Shown here piece by piece: positions 2,492 to 52,028 of a stretch of DNA of 61,139 nt. The notes under the pieces were generated by a model, which did not search any database, was not told the origin of the DNA, and saw nothing but the letters and a program-made list of their open reading frames with translations. The first letter of the stretch is position 1; every line of letters begins with the position of its first letter. This DNA is from an uncultured Gammaproteobacteria bacterium (GTDB taxonomy: Bacteria > Patescibacteriota > Patescibacteriia > UBA9934): contig CAZREA010000001.1 in assembly GCA_964599455.1 (NCBI GenBank), positions 419,829-480,967 on the forward strand. The letters are read 5' to 3'. A program made the position numbers and the translations under genes.

Positions 2492-2578
2492 TGGTGCCTC
2501 GGGAGGGACTCGAACCCTCAACCCCTCACGGGGAACGGATTTTGAGTCCGTCGCGTATACCAATTCCGCCACCAAGGC
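2492..2578 (-). tRNA. tRNA-Leu (anticodon CAA), long variable arm, CCA encoded
   Basis: Reverse complement reads GCCTTGGTGGCGGAATTGGTA...GGACTCAAAATCC...GGTTCGAGTCCCTCCCGAGGCACCA. Cloverleaf with a 7-bp acceptor stem, anticodon loop CU-CAA-AA and a class II variable arm. Confidence 0.9.
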
Positions 2579-2598
2579 TTTTATTTTTATGAAATTTC

Positions 2599-2675
2599 TG
2601 GTGGCTGGGGTGGGAATCGAACCCACGACCTAAGGCTTATGAGTCCTTCGCTCTAACCGACTGAGCTACCCAGCC
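2599..2675 (-). tRNA. tRNA with CAT anticodon (elongator Met or lysidine-modified Ile2), CCA encoded
   Basis: Reverse complement reads GGCTGGGTAGCTCAGTCGGTTAGAGCGAAGGACTCATAAGCCTTAGGTCGTGGGTTCGATTCCCACCCCAGCCACCA. It lacks the 1:72 mismatch and the triple G-C anticodon stem of initiators. Confidence 0.88.
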
Positions 2676-2849
2676 ATGAACAATTTGTCGAAATTCACGC
2701 CCCATAGCCTAACACGTCATGCACTTCCCGACAAGACAGTATTTCCTTCATTTGCCCTTTTATTATTGATCTGATAAAGTACTGTGCATTCAGTAGCTGT
2801 TTCATCTCTGGCGATGCAACCCGAGCAAGGGAGAAAGCGCCGAGCGAAG

Positions 2850-2973
2850 ATTTGCCACTAAGTTTGTCAGATGCTAGGAGTCGACGAGCACCGGCCGAGG
2901 CGTACTGCCTAAAGTACGGTGAGGCCGGAGCGCAAGTCGACGACAACGCAGCTGGCAAACTTGGGTGGCAAAT
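2850..2973. repeat. 124-bp rod-like imperfect palindrome (MITE-like) abutting tRNA-fMet
   Basis: The arms ATTTGCCACTAAGTTTGTCAG and CTGGCAAACTTGGGTGGCAAAT are inverted copies. The GC-rich interior has nested GTCGAC..GTCGAC and CCGGCC..GGCCGG pairings. Confidence 0.6.
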
Positions 2974-2979
2974 CTGTAT

Positions 2980-3056
2980 CGCAGGGTGGAGCAGCCAGGC
3001 AGCTCGCCGGGCTCATAACCCGGAGGTCGCAGGTTCAAATCCTGCCCCTGCAACCA
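2980..3056 (+). tRNA. Initiator tRNA-fMet (CAT), CCA encoded
   Basis: CGCAGGGTGGAGCAGCCAGGCAGCTCGCCGGGCTCATAACCCGGAGGTCGCAGGTTCAAATCCTGCCCCTGCAACCA. Has the C1:A72 mismatch and three G-C pairs closing the anticodon loop. Confidence 0.93.
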
Positions 3057-7596: not shown

Positions 7597-8910
7597 TTAT
7601 GGACGAAGTCGCTGTACATCACGTGGGAAAATCGTCGCCTCCTTGATGTTGGCGAGTCCAAGCACATTTTGCGTCAAACGCTGCAGGCCCATACCAAATC
7701 CGCCTTCAGGCGGGATGCCGTATTTGTGCATCATGAGGTAATCCTCGAATTGAGCAGGATCTAAACCTTTATCTTTAATACGTTGCACCTGCTCATCATA
7801 GCGATTCACCCGCATGCCACCAGAAATGATTTCACTACCAAAGCCAACAAGATCGAAACTGAGCGTACCGTTCGGATCATCGGGATTGAGTTTTACGTAG
7901 AAGGGGCGTTTCGATGCCGGGTAGTCGGTCACAAATACAAAACCCGATCTGTAATGCTGCGGTGCCCACACGGTCGACAGCCAGCGCTCGCCCGCCGGGG
8001 AAAGATCAGGCTCACTTGTTTCATCAACGCCACCCTCATCTTTATAAACTTGCAGTGCTTCTTTGAGCGAAATACGAGGAAACTTTTCGCCAAGCGGCGG
8101 CAACGTGACACCCAACAACGAGAGCTCAAGTGCACATTCACGCTCAACGGTCGCGAGCATTTCCCGGATCACCGCCTCAGCATGATCCATAATCTCGTCC
8201 ATGCCATCAACAAAACCAAGCTCAAATTCGAATTGATTGAACTCCGTCAAGTGTCGTGACGTCGCAAACTTTTCAGCACGGAAGGAATACGATAAGCCAT
8301 ACACACCTTCGTAGACTCCCATAGTCATTTGCTTATACAACTGCGCAGATTGTGTGAGCGTTGCTTCACGACCGTAATAGTCAACCTTAAAAAACTCTGC
8401 ACCACCTTCAGAAGCAGCACCTGCCAAAACAGGAAAGAAGATCTCTGTGAATCCCTGACGATTCATGTACTCGCGATAGCCACGAACAAGCGCAGCTTGG
8501 ACGCGGAAAATAGCGCGTTGCTTTGGGTGACGTAAAGTAACGACGCGATTATCCAACAATGTATCGAGCTGTGCATCAATTTCCGGTTTGCTGATTTCCA
8601 CTGGAACTGGATCAAGAACCGGTGAGAGTATCTCGATCGTTTGCGCTTGCACTTCAACTTCTTTTACGCTTGGATCTTTGCTCTTTTTTTCCTTTACGAC
8701 GCCGGTAACCTTAAGAACTGTTTCCATCTGGAAGCCTTTTAGCTGCTCAAGATGTTGCGGTTCTAAAACGACCTGCACAAGTCCGGTTCGATCACGCAAA
8801 ATAGCGAAACCAAAATTCTTCATGTCGCGAAGATTGTGAAGCCAGCCAGCAATAATCACCGTTTCGCCGAGAAGTAAAGGAAGTTCAGAGATGAGTTTGC
8901 GATTGTGCAT
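7597..8910 (-). CDS. aspS: Aspartyl-tRNA synthetase, archaeal/eukaryal-type class IIb
   Basis: OB-fold N-terminus (VIIAGWLHNLRDMKNFGFAILRDRTGLVQVV), class II motifs (FRAEKFATSRHLTEF; GGFGMGLQRL) and C-terminus FPRDVQRLRP. Start chosen at ATG 8910; the alternative at 9000 adds 30 non-conserved residues. Confidence 0.9.
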   Translation of the reverse strand: MHNRKLISELPLLLGETVIIAGWLHNLRDMKNFGFAILRDRTGLVQVVLEPQHLEQLKGFQMETVLKVTGVVKEKKSKDPSVKEVEVQAQTIEILSPVLDPVPVEISKPEIDAQLDTLLDNRVVTLRHPKQRAIFRVQAALVRGYREYMNRQGFTEIFFPVLAGAASEGGAEFFKVDYYGREATLTQSAQLYKQMTMGVYEGVYGLSYSFRAEKFATSRHLTEFNQFEFELGFVDGMDEIMDHAEAVIREMLATVERECALELSLLGVTLPPLGEKFPRISLKEALQVYKDEGGVDETSEPDLSPAGERWLSTVWAPQHYRSGFVFVTDYPASKRPFYVKLNPDDPNGTLSFDLVGFGSEIISGGMRVNRYDEQVQRIKDKGLDPAQFEDYLMMHKYGIPPEGGFGMGLQRLTQNVLGLANIKEATIFPRDVQRLRP

Positions 8911-9059
8911 AGGAGTTAGGAGTGATGAGCGAGGGCCATGATCTGTCCACCACGATGGTCTTCTGAGCCAGCCGTCGGCAAAATTCCATTTTGCCGTCAA
9001 CGGCGTTTCTCAGCCGACCGGAGCAAGGACAGATCATTGCCCGAGCGATATCAAAATAT

Positions 9060-10364
9060 TTATGGAGTAAATCTATTAAGCATCCGAGGAAACGCGATCG
9101 TTTCCCGAATATGATGCACACCGGTAATCCAGCGAACCGTGCGTTCTAATCCAATACCGAATCCACTGTGCGGAACTGAACCGTATTTGCGCGTGTTCAA
9201 GTACCATTCGTATTGTTCAAGTGGATATTTGCGATCGATGATTTCTTGACGCAGAACTTCATAACTCTCTTCACGTTGGCTCCCACCAATAATCTCTCTT
9301 CCCTCTTCCGGCGCAATTAAATCAGCACACCGCGCACGGACGACACCTTCTTCATCCGCATAACGCTTCATGTAAAACGACTTCACGACAAGCGGATAAT
9401 CTTGAATGAAGACGGGTAGCTGATATTTGTTTCCTAAATGAATTTCTTCCTCAGTCGTCATGTCATCAAGGCGATCAACCGTTAAACCATCAGCAGCTAA
9501 GAGATCTTTCGCCTGAGCATGCGTCAAGCGAACAAACGGCTCATCAACCAGACGTTGTAGCAACGTTGTATCGCGTTCGAGAATCTTGAGCTCTTCCTGA
9601 CAATGTTCAAGCACATCTTTTACGATTCTTTTCACCATCTTTTCTTGCAAATCCATGTTCATGACCTGATCAAAAAAAGCCATCTCCGCATCCATCATCC
9701 ATAACTCTGATAAGTGATGCCGTGTCTTGCTTTTCTCGGCACGAAACACTGGTCCAAAATCATACACTTTACCAAAACCCATGATACCGGCCTCGCTATA
9801 AAGCTGACCTGATTGTGACAAATACATTGGTGTACCGTAATAGTCGACACTGAACAGCTGGGTCGTATCTTCGCAACTCGTCGGCTGCAAAATTGGTGCA
9901 TCAAAACGAATAAAACCTTCTTCGTGAAAGAATTGCTCAATTGAGAAAAAAACCCGATCACGAATACGCAATACTGCCCAAGGTGTTTTTGAGCGTAAGT
10001 ACAGATCGCGATTATCAAATAAAAATTCCGGACCATGATCTTTTTTCCCAATCGGATATTCATCGGTAAAAATATGGATTGCCTTGAAACTTGTACCTTG
10101 AATTTCAAATCCAGATGGCGCTCGAGGTTCCGCTTTAACCAAACCCGTGATCTCCACCGAAGATTCGATAGTCAACTTCTGCAATTCTTCCCACTGCTCA
10201 GCGGAAAGTTCAGCGGCGCTGTAGACAATCTGGACAAAACCAGAGCCGTCGCGAAACTGCAAAAAGAAGATCTTTCCGCTCGAACGGAAATTATATGCCC
10301 AACCTTTCAGCGTTACTTCTTGACCGACATGCTCAGCAAGGTGATTGATAGTGATAAAAGACAT
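9060..10364 (-). CDS. asnS: Asparaginyl-tRNA synthetase
   Basis: KGWAYNFRSSGKIFFLQFRDGSGFVQIV, FRAEKSKTRHHLSELWMMDAE, GFGIGLERTVRWITG..IRETIAFPR. AsnRS-type class IIb. Confidence 0.9.
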   Translation of the reverse strand: MSFITINHLAEHVGQEVTLKGWAYNFRSSGKIFFLQFRDGSGFVQIVYSAAELSAEQWEELQKLTIESSVEITGLVKAEPRAPSGFEIQGTSFKAIHIFTDEYPIGKKDHGPEFLFDNRDLYLRSKTPWAVLRIRDRVFFSIEQFFHEEGFIRFDAPILQPTSCEDTTQLFSVDYYGTPMYLSQSGQLYSEAGIMGFGKVYDFGPVFRAEKSKTRHHLSELWMMDAEMAFFDQVMNMDLQEKMVKRIVKDVLEHCQEELKILERDTTLLQRLVDEPFVRLTHAQAKDLLAADGLTVDRLDDMTTEEEIHLGNKYQLPVFIQDYPLVVKSFYMKRYADEEGVVRARCADLIAPEEGREIIGGSQREESYEVLRQEIIDRKYPLEQYEWYLNTRKYGSVPHSGFGIGLERTVRWITGVHHIRETIAFPRMLNRFTP

Positions 10365-36796: not shown

Positions 36797-36818
36797 GGGG
36801 TCGGGCATGCCCGACCCC
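36797..36818. repeat. P3 perfect palindrome GGGGTCGGGCATGCCCGACCCC touching the leuS stop codon
   Basis: 22-bp perfect palindrome. Confidence 0.8.
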
Positions 36819-39800
36819 TACAGCACAAAATTCACAATTTTTCCTTTTACCACGATCGTCTTTTTTGGCTCGTTCGTCAGGTGCTTGGCAACGTTTTCGT
36901 TTTGTTTAGCAATGGCGACAATCTGTTCATCAGTAGCGTCGGCAGGAACAGTGATGTTCCCACGTAATTTACCGTTTACTTGAACCGCAATCGTCATCTC
37001 GTCATCAGTTAGGAATGCAGAATCAAATTGCGGCCAAGGCTGTTCTTCAACAAATCCTTTTTCGCCAATCTTCTCCCAAAGTTCGTTCGCAACATGCGGA
37101 GCAAAAGGAACGAGCATCATCAATATAAGCTTAAAAGATTCTTTGGTAATCACCTTTTGTTCGTAGACATCGTTCACCAATGTCATCAAGGCTGCAACAG
37201 CCGTATTAAAACGATATCCTTCAATATCTTTGGTGATTTTTTCGAGCGTTTTGTACACTTTCTTTTTTAATGACGCATCTTCGCTGTCAGAAACAAACTC
37301 TGCCATACGCACGACGCGATCCAAAAAACGACGTACGCCAATCACGCCATTCATCGACCATGGTACTGGCTCCTCAAACGGTCCCATGAAAAGCTCATAC
37401 ACACGTAGCGTATCTGCTCCGTACGCTTGCACAATGTCATCGGGATTGACGACATTACCTTTTGATTTGCTCATCTTGGTTCCGTCTTCTGCGAGAATTA
37501 ATCCATGAGCAATACGCTTCTGACAAAATTCGGAAAATGGCACATGTCCGCGATCGAACAACACTTTTGTCCAGAAGCGTGCATACAATAAGTGACGCGT
37601 GGCATGCTCCATCCCACCGTTGTACACATCAACTGGCAACCAGTGTTTAAGCTTATCTTTGCTGGCAAACGCCTGATCATTATGCGGATCGGCGTAGCGC
37701 AAAAAATACCAACTCGACCCTGCCCAATTCGGCATCGTATCGGTTTCGCGTGTGGCTTTGCCCCCACACTGCGGACAAGACGTGTTCATCCAATCAGGAA
37801 TCAACGACAACGGTGACTCGCCCGTATCGGTTGGTTCGTATTTTTCAACCTGCGGCAACGTTACCGGCAAATCTGTTTCCGGCACCGGTACCCAACCATC
37901 ATGTTCCGATGCACATCCATTTTCACAATGCACGAGCGGAATCGGCTCACCCCAATAACGCTGTCGCGAAAATACCCAATCACGCAAACGATAGGTCACT
38001 TTCTTGCGTCCACTTCCCTGCTCTTCGAGCCAAGTAGTAATTTTTTGGATCGCATCATCAGAGGTAAGTTCGGAGAATTGATCTGAGTTCGTAAGGATGC
38101 CTTTTTCAGGCGTACATTGATCGTCTCGACCAATACGTCGCCACACTTCTTTCATGTCGTCAGCAGTAATAAAGCTCATCACTTCATCACGCGAGATCCA
38201 AACAAGATCAGCAAGTGCTTTTTCATCGTCGGCAATCTCTTGGTGAGTATCGTCAGCAAGTTCAAATAACATGCCAGAGAATTCTGCCCAACGATTTTGT
38301 TTTTTTACCATGTGATAAAACTGGGAATGGATAGAATCCCCAAGTTTACGAACCAAACGCATGTTTTGATAACCTGTTTCCTCTTTAATTTCGCGCATCG
38401 CAGCTTCAATCGGCTCTTCCCCATCTTCAATACCGCCAATCACAAATCCCTGCCACGTATTCGCTTTATACTTCACGCACAAGTATTTCTCTTCATTCCA
38501 ATGTTTAATAACACACACTGCAGCTTTTCGTTTTACAAAAGGAGCATCAGGTCGAAGAGCATCATCACCGCTTGATCGAACGAATAATGATTGCACGACC
38601 GAACGAATTGATAAGTGATATTTCTTCGCAAACGCCCAATCACGTTCATCATGCGCCGGCACGGCCATCACCGCACCTGTTCCATACGAACCGACAACAT
38701 AGTCCGCCACCCAAATCGGAACCTTTTCGCCATTTGCCGGATTCACGGCATACGCACCCGTAAAGACCCCGGTTTTTTCACGACTGAGGTCACCACGCTC
38801 TTCATCGGTTTTATTTTTCGTAGTAGCAACATATGCATCAACCTCAGCGCGCTGTGCGTCGGTCGTGATTCGCGAGACCAAGGGATGTTCCGGAGCAAGA
38901 ACAACATACGTAACACCGAAAACGGTATCAGGACGAGTGGTAAAAACGGTAATAATCGGATTTGTCAGCTTAAAATGATAAATATAAACGAGATCATCGT
39001 CGGTAATTTCACGCTTGTAGTACGTAGAATAAATCTTACGTCGCTCCTCAAGCGTCTGCGCATCATGCTCATGGCCCGGAAAATCAAGAGGAACATCCTT
39101 CAACGAACGCTCTTCAATCTGCGTCACTTGCGCCATAGCAAAAACTTGCTGCGCTTCCCAATTAATCAACTTCACAATATCGCCTTCTTTGATATTCTTC
39201 TCCATTCTAAAAGTCACTGTTTTGTTACCAGACATGATCTCATCACAAAGCCAAGGACGGAATTTGAAATATTCGATCGGTCGAGCAGCCGTTTCTCCAA
39301 TCACAAAATCAATCTCCGCACCTTCACTTCTTCCAATCCATTCTTCCTGCTCTTTTTTAATTTTCGGCAAATAGTCGACGCCTTTGAGATCTTCTAACAG
39401 ACGATCGGCATATTTTGTCATCGCAATCATCCACTGTTCTTTTTCGCGCTTCTCAACTGGTGTTCCGCAGCGTTCACACACACCACCAGCTGCTTCTTCA
39501 TTTGCCAAACCAATCTTATCCTTCGGACACCAATTGATCGGCATCTTCGCCTTATAACAAAGTCCATGCTTAAAAAATTCCAAAAACATCCATTGCGTCC
39601 ATTTGTAATACGCGGGATCAGTTGTATCAACTTCGCGGGACCAATCAAAACTAAAGCCGATGGATTGTAATTGTCGGCGAAACGTTTCGATGTTTTGTTT
39701 GGTCACGATTGACGGATGAATGCCGGTTTTGATGGCATAATTTTCAGCAGGCAATCCAAACGCATCCCAACCCATGGGAAAAAGGACATTCATTCCTTCC

Positions 39801-40000
39801 ATGCGACGCTTACGCGCTATGACATCAAGTGCGGTGTAACTCCGCGGATGACCGACGTGCAAACCAGCTCCTGATGGATAGGGAAACTCGACAAGAACAT
39901 AATATTTTTCTCGCAAATCGTTTTCTTTTGCATAAAAGATGGCACTTTCATGCCACTTTTTTTGCCACTTGGGATCAAAAAACCGATGATCGTACGACAT
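36818..40000 (-). CDS. leuS: Leucyl-tRNA synthetase with two extra inserted domains (ASCH-like and Nudix)
   Basis: HIGH (HVGH) and KMSKS present. CP1 editing motifs TTRPDT and AVPAHDERD present. 1060 aa, roughly 200 aa longer than typical bacterial LeuRS. Confidence 0.95.
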   Translation of the reverse strand: MSYDHRFFDPKWQKKWHESAIFYAKENDLREKYYVLVEFPYPSGAGLHVGHPRSYTALDVIARKRRMEGMNVLFPMGWDAFGLPAENYAIKTGIHPSIVTKQNIETFRRQLQSIGFSFDWSREVDTTDPAYYKWTQWMFLEFFKHGLCYKAKMPINWCPKDKIGLANEEAAGGVCERCGTPVEKREKEQWMIAMTKYADRLLEDLKGVDYLPKIKKEQEEWIGRSEGAEIDFVIGETAARPIEYFKFRPWLCDEIMSGNKTVTFRMEKNIKEGDIVKLINWEAQQVFAMAQVTQIEERSLKDVPLDFPGHEHDAQTLEERRKIYSTYYKREITDDDLVYIYHFKLTNPIITVFTTRPDTVFGVTYVVLAPEHPLVSRITTDAQRAEVDAYVATTKNKTDEERGDLSREKTGVFTGAYAVNPANGEKVPIWVADYVVGSYGTGAVMAVPAHDERDWAFAKKYHLSIRSVVQSLFVRSSGDDALRPDAPFVKRKAAVCVIKHWNEEKYLCVKYKANTWQGFVIGGIEDGEEPIEAAMREIKEETGYQNMRLVRKLGDSIHSQFYHMVKKQNRWAEFSGMLFELADDTHQEIADDEKALADLVWISRDEVMSFITADDMKEVWRRIGRDDQCTPEKGILTNSDQFSELTSDDAIQKITTWLEEQGSGRKKVTYRLRDWVFSRQRYWGEPIPLVHCENGCASEHDGWVPVPETDLPVTLPQVEKYEPTDTGESPLSLIPDWMNTSCPQCGGKATRETDTMPNWAGSSWYFLRYADPHNDQAFASKDKLKHWLPVDVYNGGMEHATRHLLYARFWTKVLFDRGHVPFSEFCQKRIAHGLILAEDGTKMSKSKGNVVNPDDIVQAYGADTLRVYELFMGPFEEPVPWSMNGVIGVRRFLDRVVRMAEFVSDSEDASLKKKVYKTLEKITKDIEGYRFNTAVAALMTLVNDVYEQKVITKESFKLILMMLVPFAPHVANELWEKIGEKGFVEEQPWPQFDSAFLTDDEMTIAVQVNGKLRGNITVPADATDEQIVAIAKQNENVAKHLTNEPKKTIVVKGKIVNFVL

Positions 40001-40040: not shown

Positions 40041-40469
40041 TTAGATCACTTCATCCGACGGAAATGAAGGCATTGTGCCATGCACGCGGTATCCACAGAG
40101 ATCCGAAAAAACAAGATGGACCACAGCCTGCCGGAAACCGAGTGTATCCGGTAATTCTAAATCTTTTGCCAATTCCTCTATATCGCGGTAAATCCCCGCA
40201 GGGAGAACGAACTCAGTTGCAATAGAGGAAGTTGGAAGAAGTTCTTGTCCTGTTTCAAAAAGCTGCTCAAGTGCTTCAGTAATATCGTCATAAGAAAAAT
40301 CTCCGGCAAAGGGCCCACGAGACAATCGCCAACCGTCTTTATATAATACTTGCATTCCCTCAAGAAATCTTCCCAGCAAAGGAACCTGCATCCCCGTCCA
40401 TTGCGCAGCTTCATGAAAAAATCTTTGTGCCTGTTGATCTGGACTCTCTCTTTCTCTTTCACGAGACAT
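40041..40469 (-). CDS. Hypothetical protein (142 aa)
   Basis: ATG at 40469, 2 nt after the methyltransferase stop. No family recognised. Confidence 0.5.
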   Translation of the reverse strand: MSRERERESPDQQAQRFFHEAAQWTGMQVPLLGRFLEGMQVLYKDGWRLSRGPFAGDFSYDDITEALEQLFETGQELLPTSSIATEFVLPAGIYRDIEELAKDLELPDTLGFRQAVVHLVFSDLCGYRVHGTMPSFPSDEVI

Positions 40470-40471
40470 AG

Positions 40472-41356
40472 TTAGGGTTTTTGACCGATCAGCAGAAAGC
40501 TTAGCCACAACGCCCGCTCACTCATACCTAGATTTTTCTGCGCAACACCTCGCAAATGCAACGCTCGTTGTGTCTCAGGAATCTGAAAAACGGGAATTAC
40601 CTGGATATGTTTCCATCCTAAATGTTGGAGAACTTCTTCATACTTTTCAGGCCGGACGCGATTAGGAATGCCGGGAAAGTGCGCGAGACGATAAAGCCAC
40701 TGCGGATAGCGATAAATATTAAGCGGATCACGCTCACGTAAAATGCCCGTGTGCGTTTGTAAATCAATATGCGCGCACAACCACCCGCCGGGCGCGAGGA
40801 CGCGATGTACATCAACAAGCGTTTGCGCGATAGTATCAAAATGCTCGAAGGCATTATTACTCACTACTACATCAATACTCGCATCGGCAATCGGTCGCAA
40901 ATGAAATGCCACGTCCTGTATCCACGAAAGCGCCGAGGACTGATGAGCTTCATAGGCATTCAATTCCTGAGAAATATCCTGACGCTGCGCTGGATCAATA
41001 ATTTCATCCAGCAATGGCTGATACCAATTCTGCGGAACCTGTTCGAGCAGATTGTTTTTATCAAGTCCAACATACCTTTTAGCACCAGCTGCTAAAAGTA
41101 AAAGTCCAGGAGCCAAGTCGGCACCGGGTCCTAATTCCAGCACGCGTTTTTCGGCAAAAGGATGTGCTGATTTCGTCACCTCAACAAGCGCTTTTTCCCA
41201 ACGAGCAACCGTTTCATGCGCATACGTAAACGCACGATCACGTTCAGCGACGGTAAACGGACGCGGTTTATGATAGCCGAGTATCGTGTAACGAATTTTA
41301 TTCAAAAATAAAACCTTCATTCCAACAAAAAAGAGTATGGTAGCACGAACGCTCAT
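40472..41356 (-). CDS. Class I SAM-dependent methyltransferase
   Basis: Motif I VLELGPGADL and post-I/II pattern (LAPGGWLCAHIDL). Confidence 0.72.
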   Translation of the reverse strand: MSVRATILFFVGMKVLFLNKIRYTILGYHKPRPFTVAERDRAFTYAHETVARWEKALVEVTKSAHPFAEKRVLELGPGADLAPGLLLLAAGAKRYVGLDKNNLLEQVPQNWYQPLLDEIIDPAQRQDISQELNAYEAHQSSALSWIQDVAFHLRPIADASIDVVVSNNAFEHFDTIAQTLVDVHRVLAPGGWLCAHIDLQTHTGILRERDPLNIYRYPQWLYRLAHFPGIPNRVRPEKYEEVLQHLGWKHIQVIPVFQIPETQRALHLRGVAQKNLGMSERALWLSFLLIGQKP

Positions 41357-50762: not shown

Positions 50763-52028
50763 CTAACGAAAGAAGCTGTCTAGTGCAGGATACCAATGTT
50801 TTGCCGATAATTGCATCAACTTTTCTTGAAACGAAGTGTTATCAAACAATTCTCCAATTTTACGTAAAATATCATCATCACATTCTGCCTGTTCATCTTT
50901 ACTCACGCCGCGTTCTCTGCGGTCAAGCGCAAGCGCATGAACTTCACCAAAAAATGCTGGGTAATCGGCAGCTTGAAGGATTTCTGCTCGTTGTCCACGA
51001 AGAGTTTCCGTAATAAATGCACGAACACGAAGATCAGTAAAAGCTCCAGGACGAACGGTGCGCGTTTTCCATTGATGCCAGTAAATTCCTTTGCTCTGTA
51101 CTTCTCCAAAAAGTCTATCAAGCGCCTCTCCTGCAAAACCTAATTCAATACATCGTTGACGAGTATCTTTCACTGTTTCGGCATCAAGATGTTGAAGGCT
51201 AAAAAGTTCAGGAGCGACCACACCCATCCCTACCAATACATACTCACCAACACTATTGAGAAAAGCGTGTTCGAAAGACTCGGGCGTTGATCGCGAAGTT
51301 AATTTATGAACATTCGTCAGCAAACGCTTCTGAATACGGTCTGCTAATAGGGGAAAGAAACTTTCCAAGACACTCAGCTCACGCAAAAATTCAAGAGGGG
51401 TGCGCAAAGACTGAGGATCCCTTTCAGTCAAAAAACTGCGAGTAAAGGTAGCAAGATTATTCACGGGCTCTTGTAACTGTTCAGCAATAGCCTGTGCTCT
51501 TCGAAGACGTTGTAATTCTTGAAGGAAGCCCGTCATAACGACATCCGGTTTCGCCCGCAAAACTTCTTCATGCTGATCAATATCGATCTGTACTTCCTTT
51601 GGTCTTACCAATGCCTTTTGCACCTCAACAAATGAAGCACGTCGCTCCTTTTCTTCATCTCCTTCAAGAAATATCCCATCTTGTGCATCGTAGTAATAAC
51701 GAAGTGAAAAAATCTGTAAACGCCTTGCATTTGGCACCGCTAAATCAGCGGCTCGATCCACGATTCTTTCAAGAAAATTTGGCAGCTGCTGAAGAGTAGC
51801 AGCGTAAATAGTACGACGTTGTTCAGGAGCCGCCGCTACTACTCGCTCTAAAAAAGCAGGAAATACTTCACGTGGACTGTCTTGACCTTCTCGAAAATGC
51901 TCGCGCAAGCTCAAGGCAAGTCTCTGCAAAAGCGCCTGACGCTGTTCAACTCGCTGATCTAAAAGTTCTTCTTGAGATAGTCTTTGTTCTTCTCGAAGCT
52001 CTAAACGCATCCCTCCCATAAAAATCAT
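50763..52028 (-). CDS. Hypothetical protein (421 aa), helical, Gln/Leu/Arg-rich N-terminus
   Basis: Long uninterrupted ORF with native-looking composition. No recognisable catalytic motif. Confidence 0.6.
   Translation of the reverse strand: MIFMGGMRLELREEQRLSQEELLDQRVEQRQALLQRLALSLREHFREGQDSPREVFPAFLERVVAAAPEQRRTIYAATLQQLPNFLERIVDRAADLAVPNARRLQIFSLRYYYDAQDGIFLEGDEEKERRASFVEVQKALVRPKEVQIDIDQHEEVLRAKPDVVMTGFLQELQRLRRAQAIAEQLQEPVNNLATFTRSFLTERDPQSLRTPLEFLRELSVLESFFPLLADRIQKRLLTNVHKLTSRSTPESFEHAFLNSVGEYVLVGMGVVAPELFSLQHLDAETVKDTRQRCIELGFAGEALDRLFGEVQSKGIYWHQWKTRTVRPGAFTDLRVRAFITETLRGQRAEILQAADYPAFFGEVHALALDRRERGVSKDEQAECDDDILRKIGELFDNTSFQEKLMQLSAKHWYPALDSFFR

Follow-up and report, generated by a model that had tools for sequence, protein, structure and literature searches.

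A YqfB-like ASCH domain in the CP1 editing hairpin of a Patescibacteria leucyl-tRNA synthetase

What is a domain related to the Escherichia coli amidohydrolase YqfB doing inside a leucyl-tRNA synthetase (LeuRS)? The question is raised by the LeuRS gene at 36818-40000 in a stretch of 61,139 nucleotides, here called the window, from contig CAZREA010000001.1 (positions 419,829 to 480,967; assembly GCA_964599455.1) of an uncultured bacterium that GTDB places in the Patescibacteriota (UBA9934). All coordinates are those of the window, and the LeuRS gene with all its features lies on the minus strand. Within this gene the segment 38963-39298, corresponding to LeuRS residues 235-346, interrupts the CP1 editing domain. 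Sequence comparison and structure prediction agree in identifying it as a complete, predictably well-folding ASCH domain of the YqfB type, inserted in-frame in the tip of the first CP1 hairpin. The answer preferred here, with a probability that falls slightly short of even, is that the insert would be an autonomous N4-acylcytidine amidohydrolase, carried by LeuRS and serving nucleoside salvage.

The host gene is complete. A single uninterrupted open reading frame encodes a LeuRS of 1060 residues with two inserted domains, which scores 967.8 bits against the bacterial LeuRS model TIGR00396 (leuS_bact; cut-off 548.4) and in which Pfam recognises tRNA-synt_1, ASCH, tRNA-synt_1_2, NUDIX and Anticodon_1. 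Reading of the sequence locates the HIGH signature of the synthetic active site as HVGH (residues 48-51; 39848-39859), the KMSKS signature (residues 842-846; 37463-37477) and the Asp motif of the editing site as PAHDERD (residues 448-454, with AHDERD at 449-454; 38639-38659), which is kept in the ASCH-bearing LeuRS genes. Together with the Thr-rich editing motif TTRPDT (residues 354-359), all these signatures are intact, and the enzyme is, to judge from its motifs, an otherwise intact housekeeping synthetase.

The preliminary description of this DNA, made from its letters and translations, had claimed that a long insert of ASCH type precedes ITVFTTRPDT. The insert is found as described, with WIGRSEGAEIDF at residues 221-232, FKFRPWLCDEIMSGNKTVTFRMEKNIKEGD from 245, LVYIYHFKL up to 345 and ITVFTTRPDT at 350-359, and its assignment to the YqfB type of the PUA-like ASCH fold is borne out by profile, profile-profile and structural comparison alike. 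The Pfam family PF04266 matches residues 247-345 over positions 3-101 of the 103 in its profile, scoring 37.7 bits in the context of the whole protein and 40.9 bits when the segment is searched by itself (gathering cut-off 21.2). Among PDB sequences the best match of the insert is E. coli YqfB (1TE7, 9KYF), and hhalign aligns a profile of 20 relatives with YqfB at 95.3% probability. Residues 236-350, modelled with AlphaFold2 (AF2) from an alignment with 17 homologues, reach a mean confidence (pLDDT) of 90.4 and a pTM of 0.80; the first 10-residue block of the model is lower than the rest, at 76. The crystal structures of YqfB are also its best fold matches in Foldseek (9kyh and 9kyf, E 3e-7, TM 0.64/0.71, probability 1.0), 9KYH being the complex with N4-acetylcytidine (ac4C). 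All 17 PDB matches at E <= 1e-3 are ASCH-family structures, which places the model among the PUA-like beta-barrels. The matches to the ASCH hidden Markov model and in Foldseek rule out a CP1 expansion of a different fold.

In YqfB, as mutagenesis has shown (PMC6972931), Thr24 is the nucleophile, with Lys21 as the base and Glu74 as the acid, while Arg26 forms the oxyanion hole and Tyr89 positions the substrate. In hhalign and MAFFT alignments, where positions are equated by alignment and not by superposed coordinates, K21, T24, R26, E74 and Y89 correspond to K260, T263, R265, E311 and Y328 of LeuRS, and the catalytic residues whose presence had been asked about are all there: the triad T263, K260 and E311, the oxyanion Arg R265 and the Tyr. 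Three of them belong to the octapeptide GNKTVTFR (residues 258-265; 39206-39229), which follows the family pattern GxKxx[E/T]xR as G258-N-K260-T-V-T263-F-R265. It is of the Thr or 'GKTR' type, which a 2026 preprint distinguishes from Glu-type octapeptides (10.64898/2026.02.27.708502). E311 ends a GHE motif (residues 309-311; 39068-39076), and Y328 (39017-39019), aligned with Y89 by hhalign, is invariant both in the alignment of ASCH relatives and in 32 embedded copies. YqfB thus shares with the window domain the ASCH beta-barrel, a length of about 105 residues and a Thr-type octapeptide, GRKTITIR. It differs in being a free monomer, whereas the window domain is about 25% identical to it, is embedded in a 1060-residue synthetase and has the conserved GHE instead of H70.

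The ASCH fold is also that of ZmASCH, a ribonuclease of Zymomonas mobilis (PDB 5GUQ/5GUS), and the insert could in principle be a metal-dependent nuclease of single-stranded RNA of this kind. The ZmASCH structures do occur among the Foldseek matches, as weaker ones with E around 1e-4, and NYN and RNase H nucleases are found among the fusion partners of the subfamily. Nevertheless, the motif of the window domain is the Thr motif of YqfB and not the Glu type of ZmASCH, YqfB outranks ZmASCH in sequence and fold searches, and a nuclease near the 3' end of a tRNA held by an essential synthetase would presumably be hazardous. A nuclease is therefore regarded as exceedingly improbable.

The site of insertion can be fixed to a few residues. 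The first strand of the editing-domain hairpin, EGAEIDFVI (residues 226-234; 39299-39325), is recognised from the alignment of relatives and from a strand at 224-234 in the AF2 model. It is followed by the N-terminal linker of the insert, GETAARPI (residues 235-242; 39275-39298), which has no counterpart in the relatives, and by the ASCH fold itself, EYFKF...HFKLTNP (residues 243-348; 38957-39274), as delimited by PF04266, AF2 and Foldseek. The second strand, with the Thr-rich editing motif, then resumes as IITVFTTRPDT (residues 349-359; 38924-38956), an invariant block in the relatives with an AF2 strand at 349-354. From 'EIDF' to 'ITVFTTRPDT' there are 117 residues in the window protein; among the 13 aligned relatives (64-74% identity, the closest being 74% identical overall and 76% in the core) the spacing is 7-9 residues, or 2 at the shortest, except in P0023, where it is about 23. 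In the latter LeuRS an unrelated insert of about 17 residues (FTHTPEANKNRGSN...) occupies the same hairpin loop, a further sign that insertions are tolerated there.

Compared with the LeuRS of Thermus thermophilus (PDB 1H3N/2BYT), the insert replaces residues 237-242, the flanks aligning up to 236 and again from 243. In the AF2 model of the whole protein, residues 224-234 and 349-354 on either side form beta-strands of high pLDDT, so that the ASCH domain is predicted to emerge from the tip of the first CP1 beta-hairpin, directly before the Thr-rich peptide. The same model has a pLDDT below 50 over the ASCH region, because the alignment has no depth over the insert, and it is uninformative on the orientation of the domain relative to CP1 or tRNA. 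This hairpin differs from the zinc-binding neck that is called the 'CP1 hairpin' in the literature (PMC4138327).

Could such an insertion be an artefact, or a remnant without function? The identical 1060-residue protein was assembled from two separate runs and is also present on a 481-kb contig. Contigs from three independent studies, two on wastewater and one on an aquatic habitat, span both junctions of the insert with zero differences, so that the insert is not an artefact of assembly and a chimera is ruled out. An intein was rejected as well: the insert begins with VIGETAARP and ends with HFKLTNPI before ITVF, without the junction residues of an intein, and no Hint domain is matched in Pfam. 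The explanation as a whole, which covers chimeric assembly, an intein or the remnant of a mobile element and a neutral insertion in decay, could appeal to the fact that the ASCH domain is unique among the best 120 LeuRS clusters, to the endonuclease-like DUF559 domain that another LeuRS has in this hairpin and to one low-depth contig that lacks the segment. Against it stand not only the contigs of three studies and the missing intein residues, but also the open frame, the confident fold, the intact motif and the purifying selection acting on related copies. It is largely refuted and deserves next to no credence. The low-depth contig, from run X1 of the same wastewater sample, joins 38947 to 39304 via 32 other bases, and probably comes from a relative, at the level of strain or species, with an ASCH-less LeuRS.

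The distribution of the domain has to be followed by methods that see embedded copies. A word-indexed profile search with 20 ASCH sequences is blind to them and returned 17 free-standing proteins only; embedded copies were recovered by an exhaustive search of sequence representatives and by pattern scans. Among the best 120 LeuRS clusters, of which all named ones are from Patescibacteria, PF04266 is present in one, the window protein alone. The exhaustive HMMER search with the insert (1.84 billion representatives) gave 149 relatives, most of them free-standing proteins of about 110 residues, the named ones originating from Minisyncoccia and Nanoarchaeota (CPR/DPANN, CPR standing for candidate phyla radiation). 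The matches also include LeuRS with an ASCH domain at the same place, namely P0121 with its cluster member P0286, P0148, P0198 and P0141. The ASCH domain of P0121 is 54% identical to that of the window (51-54% for the P0121/P0286 pair), as against 29-40% for the other copies embedded in Patescibacteria LeuRS. P0148 stands for a 90% cluster of 246 members, with close copies in metagenome-assembled genomes (MAGs) of Saccharibacteria.

Pattern scans added 17 loci in the GTDB species genomes and 24 in metagenomes, each within the open reading frame of a class Ia synthetase and in the same hairpin. Most of the carriers are labelled Saccharibacteria or Saccharimonadia, and others Parcubacteria, Peribacteria, Uhrbacteria (RIFCSPLOWO2_01_FULL_47_17) and UBA6017. 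In all, an ASCH domain in this hairpin was found for about 40 further LeuRS genes of Patescibacteria. The junctions of the insert, between the ..GAExxF strand and the TTRPDT strand, are the same in the 16 LeuRS loci of L003-L019 and in L022-L044. These LeuRS resemble that of the window in the site, which lies between WIGRSEGAE..F and TVFTTRPDT, and in the conserved K, T, R, GHE and YY of the domain, and several of them likewise have a NUDIX domain. Unlike them, the window LeuRS has its core in an otherwise ASCH-less clade, and its ASCH domain pairs with the rare P0121/P0286 type. Scans of GTDB genomes and JGI metagenomes with a window/P0121 profile found no relative, so that this type is known from about three clusters only.

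The domain is not confined to LeuRS. In a Parcubacteria MAG (OH_CBlB_173), an isoleucyl-tRNA synthetase (IleRS; L010:2712-6098, 784 bits with TIGR00392) has it between 'VYVKFKL' and 'WTTTP', in the equivalent editing hairpin before WTTTPWT, and L045 appears to be a second IleRS with an ASCH domain. In the C-terminal fragment of a valyl-tRNA synthetase (ValRS), P0254, it is situated just before DVLDTWFSS, a site unlike that in LeuRS and IleRS. Free-standing members of the subfamily are fused with NUDIX (P0196), NYN nuclease, RNase H, PNPOx, peptidase S51 and Mur ligase domains (P0196, P0200, P0165, P0168, P0140, P0183). The two-domain NUDIX-ASCH protein P0196 mirrors the pair of inserts in the window LeuRS; a specific kinship of its NUDIX domain with the LeuRS insert was considered and dropped, the similarity being generic (32% over 73 residues). 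The searchable literature yielded no description of an ASCH domain inside a synthetase, the LeuRS-ASCH relatives being known as database sequences, and the accessible parts of two 2026 ASCH preprints do not mention synthetase fusions. Both the ASCH domain and the class Ia synthetases with CP1 are well known; it is their combination that is undescribed in papers, yet visible in precomputed Pfam annotations.

The three host enzymes are exactly the CP1-bearing synthetases, and in LeuRS and IleRS alike the insertion point adjoins, on its N-terminal side, the Thr-rich peptide lining the editing pocket. Both facts would suit a domain that repairs or proofreads the aminoacylated 3' end, by removing the N-acyl group from N-alpha-acetyl-aminoacyl-tRNA of the kind produced by GNAT toxins, or from an acylated C74 or C75 beside the editing pocket. 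The editing motifs are intact in the other ASCH-bearing LeuRS hosts too, which implies that the domain would add to editing and not replace it. Acetylation by GNAT toxins affects Ile-, Leu-, Val-, Gly- and Met-tRNAs, and NCBIfam includes a family (NF040702) of GNAT-bearing IleRS. This proposal is nonetheless considered very improbable, since the pocket residues match those of the cytidine-recognising YqfB and of the free-standing enzymes, which argues for an unchanged substrate, and the tip of the hairpin is probably at the end of CP1 far from the editing pocket.

How strongly has the domain been conserved? Of 32 distinct embedded copies, which are 30-50% identical, all have the Thr, the Arg, the Glu of GHE and the Tyr, 31 have the Lys and 30 the His. 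Catalytic residues are missing from a few copies: the Lys is replaced by Glu in the free-standing P0281 and P0283 and by Met in LeuRS L007, and the His by Arg in L006. These variants might have lost or changed their activity. Within the Saccharibacteria clade the ASCH segment has a dN/dS of 0.10-0.34, compared with 0.03-0.08 for the remainder of LeuRS; selection on the domain there is purifying, though less tight than that on the LeuRS core. These data bear on the idea that the insert is a non-catalytic PUA-like module, which would bind RNA or modulate the movement of CP1 and so aid tRNA-Leu binding or translocation of its 3' end. RNA binding is linked with PUA-like folds, to which ASCH belongs, and CP1 swings during the catalytic cycle (PMC4138327). 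However, a module of this kind would hardly be expected to keep Thr, Lys, Glu and Arg in 31-32 of 32 copies at such low identity, its surface is acidic, and the closest LeuRS relatives function without it. A purely non-catalytic role is accordingly held to be improbable.

The history of the insertion can be read from two kinds of tree. The LeuRS core of the window (P0001) forms a clade with 12 LeuRS that have no ASCH domain (99% bootstrap, 76% identity), and is 44-57% identical to that of other ASCH-bearing LeuRS. As every close LeuRS relative is without the domain, the ASCH cassette of the window lineage was most likely gained after its LeuRS clade had diverged. The trees of the domain are neighbour-joining trees of only about 107 columns. 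They have a main embedded clade at 83% bootstrap, which comprises LeuRS and IleRS copies with four short proteins and leaves out the window and P0121; the latter two pair at 58%, and a single clade of all copies embedded in LeuRS and IleRS, with the window type included, is found at 4.5%. The window/P0121 type may thus represent a separate insertion. The ValRS copy P0254 belongs with the free-standing P0284 (100% bootstrap), in an ASCH clade distinct from that of the LeuRS copies. On the evidence of these trees, ASCH has been inserted into synthetases in at least two independent events, one in ValRS and one in LeuRS.

ASCH is not the only cargo of the window LeuRS. The same protein has a NUDIX domain at residues 491-616 (38153-38530; Pfam PF00293, 58.4 bits), in another loop of the editing domain. 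Its Nudix box, GGIEDGEEPIEAAMREIKEETGY (residues 522-544; 38369-38437), is located by sequence and intact, and the pLDDT of this insert exceeds 90 in the full-length AF2 model. The statement that two insertions in one synthetase are unusual does not hold for Patescibacteria, where they recur: among 110 parsed neighbouring LeuRS clusters, 60 have an insert of about 200 residues at the NUDIX site and 16 a domain-sized insert in the ASCH hairpin, and at least six other LeuRS genes combine ASCH with NUDIX and an intact Nudix box. No publication on the LeuRS NUDIX insert was found. One idea is that it might hydrolyse Ap4A or nucleotides made by or near the synthetase.

The same hairpin in other CPR LeuRS contains NUDIX (P0028, P0061, P0073), serine hydrolase (P0120, P0073) or DUF559 endonuclease-like (P0040) domains, and the second CP1 site contains NUDIX, HAD or Ser_hydrolase domains. 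The cargo domains found at both sites are all hydrolases. The comparison of these sequences identifies the hairpin as an insertion hot spot in CPR LeuRS. Across P0028, P0040, P0061, P0073, P0100 and P0120 the cargo comprises the PF06821 serine hydrolase, alpha/beta hydrolase, HAD and DUF559/MTES_1575; some of these proteins have two or three NUDIX stretches, and lengths reach 1303-1722 residues. Such LeuRS, like IleRS-GNAT, resemble the window protein in using an essential synthetase as scaffold, and the CPR ones do so at the same two CP1 sites, but they differ in the cargo domain and its chemistry. To our knowledge, none of these synthetases with extra enzymatic domains, whether IleRS-GNAT or CPR LeuRS with NUDIX, hydrolase or HAD, has been characterised.

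Sharing of the site with other hydrolases is one of several observations that favour an autonomous enzyme of small molecules. YqfB reaches a kcat/Km of up to 2.8e6 M-1 s-1 on free ac4C (PMC6972931). According to a 2026 preprint, human EOLA1 deacetylates free ac4C for salvage and leaves the ac4C levels of RNA unaltered. EOLA1 and TTHA0113 of T. thermophilus share the ASCH fold with the window domain and are both reported to deacetylate ac4C, in one preprint as the free nucleoside and for salvage; they differ in their Glu-type 'GKER' motif, their mechanism and their free-standing state. The embedded domains are acidic (median pI 5.3; 5.4 for the window domain), their linkers vary in length and sequence, and their conserved residues are the same as those of the free-standing enzymes of about 110 residues. 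Together, the efficiency of YqfB on the nucleoside, EOLA1, the shared residues, the acidity, the variable linkers and the common site of hydrolases favour this reading, as do the fusions of the subfamily with NUDIX, PNPOx, peptidase S51 and Mur ligase domains.

By analogy with YqfB, the ASCH domain would act on a flexible tether and strip the N4-acyl (acetyl) group from free N4-acylcytidine or N4-acylcytosine. Lys260 would serve as base, Thr263 as nucleophile and Glu311 as acid, with Arg265 forming the oxyanion hole. The cytidine released would enter pyrimidine salvage, a route that symbionts with such small genomes rely on, and the NUDIX cargo may contribute to it. LeuRS would be a constitutively expressed, essential scaffold that offers a permissive loop and is not the source of the substrate, and its aminoacylation and editing would be unaffected by the cargo.

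Several findings weigh against this interpretation. Some concern the enzyme itself. D27, invariant in the YqfB branch, is replaced by M266 in the window and by Leu in the other 31 embedded copies; H70 of YqfB aligns with a non-conserved position that has no His, and H310 adjoins E311 instead. The YqfB equivalog model PRK04980 (NCBIfam) gives 27.3 bits against a cut-off of 93, which marks the insert as a YqfB-like relative and not as an equivalog or orthologue. Others concern the company it keeps. The large hosts are mostly class Ia synthetases (LeuRS with about 40 genes, IleRS with 1-2 and ValRS with 1) as against one Mur ligase. In the synthetases the domain is always internal, in or near CP1, and never a terminal fusion, a hint that where it lies with respect to the tRNA could be important. 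The NYN and RNase H partners of the subfamily act on nucleic acids. Moreover, tRNA ac4C is reported to fall on overexpression of each of the 19 ASCH proteins tested (preprint 10.64898/2026.02.27.708502).

The latter observations are those that speak for a tRNA eraser acting in cis, in which LeuRS would bind the tRNA and the tethered ASCH domain would remove an N4-acyl group from a cytidine of the acceptor or D-arm region or of the CCA end. This alternative gains from the recurrence of the domain in three class Ia synthetases, in the same hairpin beside the Thr-rich editing peptide in LeuRS and IleRS and at another site in ValRS, and from the separate origin of the ValRS copy. The preprint that reports the lowered tRNA ac4C also describes YqfB as devoid of tRNA binding and an appended helix-turn-helix (HTH) domain as conferring it (10.64898/2026.02.27.708502). 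The archaeal ASCH-HTH proteins of that study, Afu3ASCH and Pku4ASCH, are comparable to the window protein in that a Thr-type catalytic domain is joined to a tRNA-binding module. In these proteins the module is a small C-terminal HTH with demonstrated tRNA binding, whereas in the window it is a whole synthetase, with the catalytic domain as an internal insertion.

Other observations speak against an eraser in cis. Since the same hairpin also houses the unrelated NUDIX, Ser_hydrolase and DUF559 domains, the position of ASCH may be merely permissive. The acidic domains and unconserved linkers, and conserved residues that do not depart from those of the free-standing copies, also argue against it. 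The only tRNA ac4C site in bacteria that is known to us is position 34 of elongator tRNA-Met, a site distant from CP1 and in another tRNA. As a target, ac4C12 of the eukaryotic kind in tRNA-Leu was considered and dropped, because the tRNA-Leu(CAA) of the window has G12 and not C. No ac4C writer was detected among the 10 mid-sized open reading frames near LeuRS in the scanned part of the window, which also counts against an eraser. Erasure in cis is on these grounds unlikely, though it has to be taken seriously. Much the same holds for the more general proposal that ASCH, and perhaps other CP1 cargo, would be coupled to LeuRS, IleRS and ValRS, the bound tRNA being handed over for erasure of an N4-acyl mark or for repair of an N-acylated 3' end; such coupling is doubtful, but still a considerable contender beside the preferred autonomous amidohydrolase.

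The order RsmB-like methyltransferase, rhodanese, LeuRS and ComEC is common to the window and to ASCH-less orthologues. At 40041-41356 (minus strand), between rhodanese and LeuRS, there are genes for a class I methyltransferase of 294 residues and a 155-residue protein without a Pfam match, and this pair is absent from the otherwise syntenic ASCH-less loci L020 and L021. The last 11 bases of the LeuRS gene (36818-36828) overlap the listed open reading frame of the downstream ComEC-like gene (867 residues; DUF4131, Competence and Lactamase_B); on another contig that gene is called with a later start (816 residues), and the overlap may therefore not be real. Elsewhere in the window, a cluster at 2492-3056 comprises three tRNA genes, CCA being encoded in each: tRNA-Leu(CAA), an elongator-like tRNA-Met, and a tRNA-Met that resembles the initiator, has a C1-A72 mismatch and lies on the opposite strand. 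Two neighbouring class II synthetase genes of the Asp/Lys/Asn type (467 and 434 residues; 7597-10364, minus strand) adjoin an apparent cluster of ribosomal-protein genes at about 11-30 kb. A 421-residue open reading frame at 50763-52028 (minus strand) has no Pfam match at E <= 1e-5.

There is disagreement over the physiological substrate of ASCH enzymes, one preprint arguing for erasure of ac4C in tRNA and the other for a role in salvaging the free nucleoside. A YqfB-type domain inside three tRNA synthetases is a natural fusion that offers a direct test between nucleoside and tRNA as substrate. If the domain were coupled to its host, it would be the first eraser or repair enzyme of tRNA modification built into an aminoacyl-tRNA synthetase, and CP1 proofreading would extend beyond ester hydrolysis. 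The 246-member cluster of P0148, with its close copies in Saccharibacteria, suggests that LeuRS-ASCH is a widespread type. The two CP1 hot spots, with their NUDIX, serine-hydrolase, HAD, DUF559 and ASCH domains, provide a system for studying how far CP1 tolerates or exploits the insertion of domains, and why symbionts with small genomes load enzymes onto an essential synthetase.

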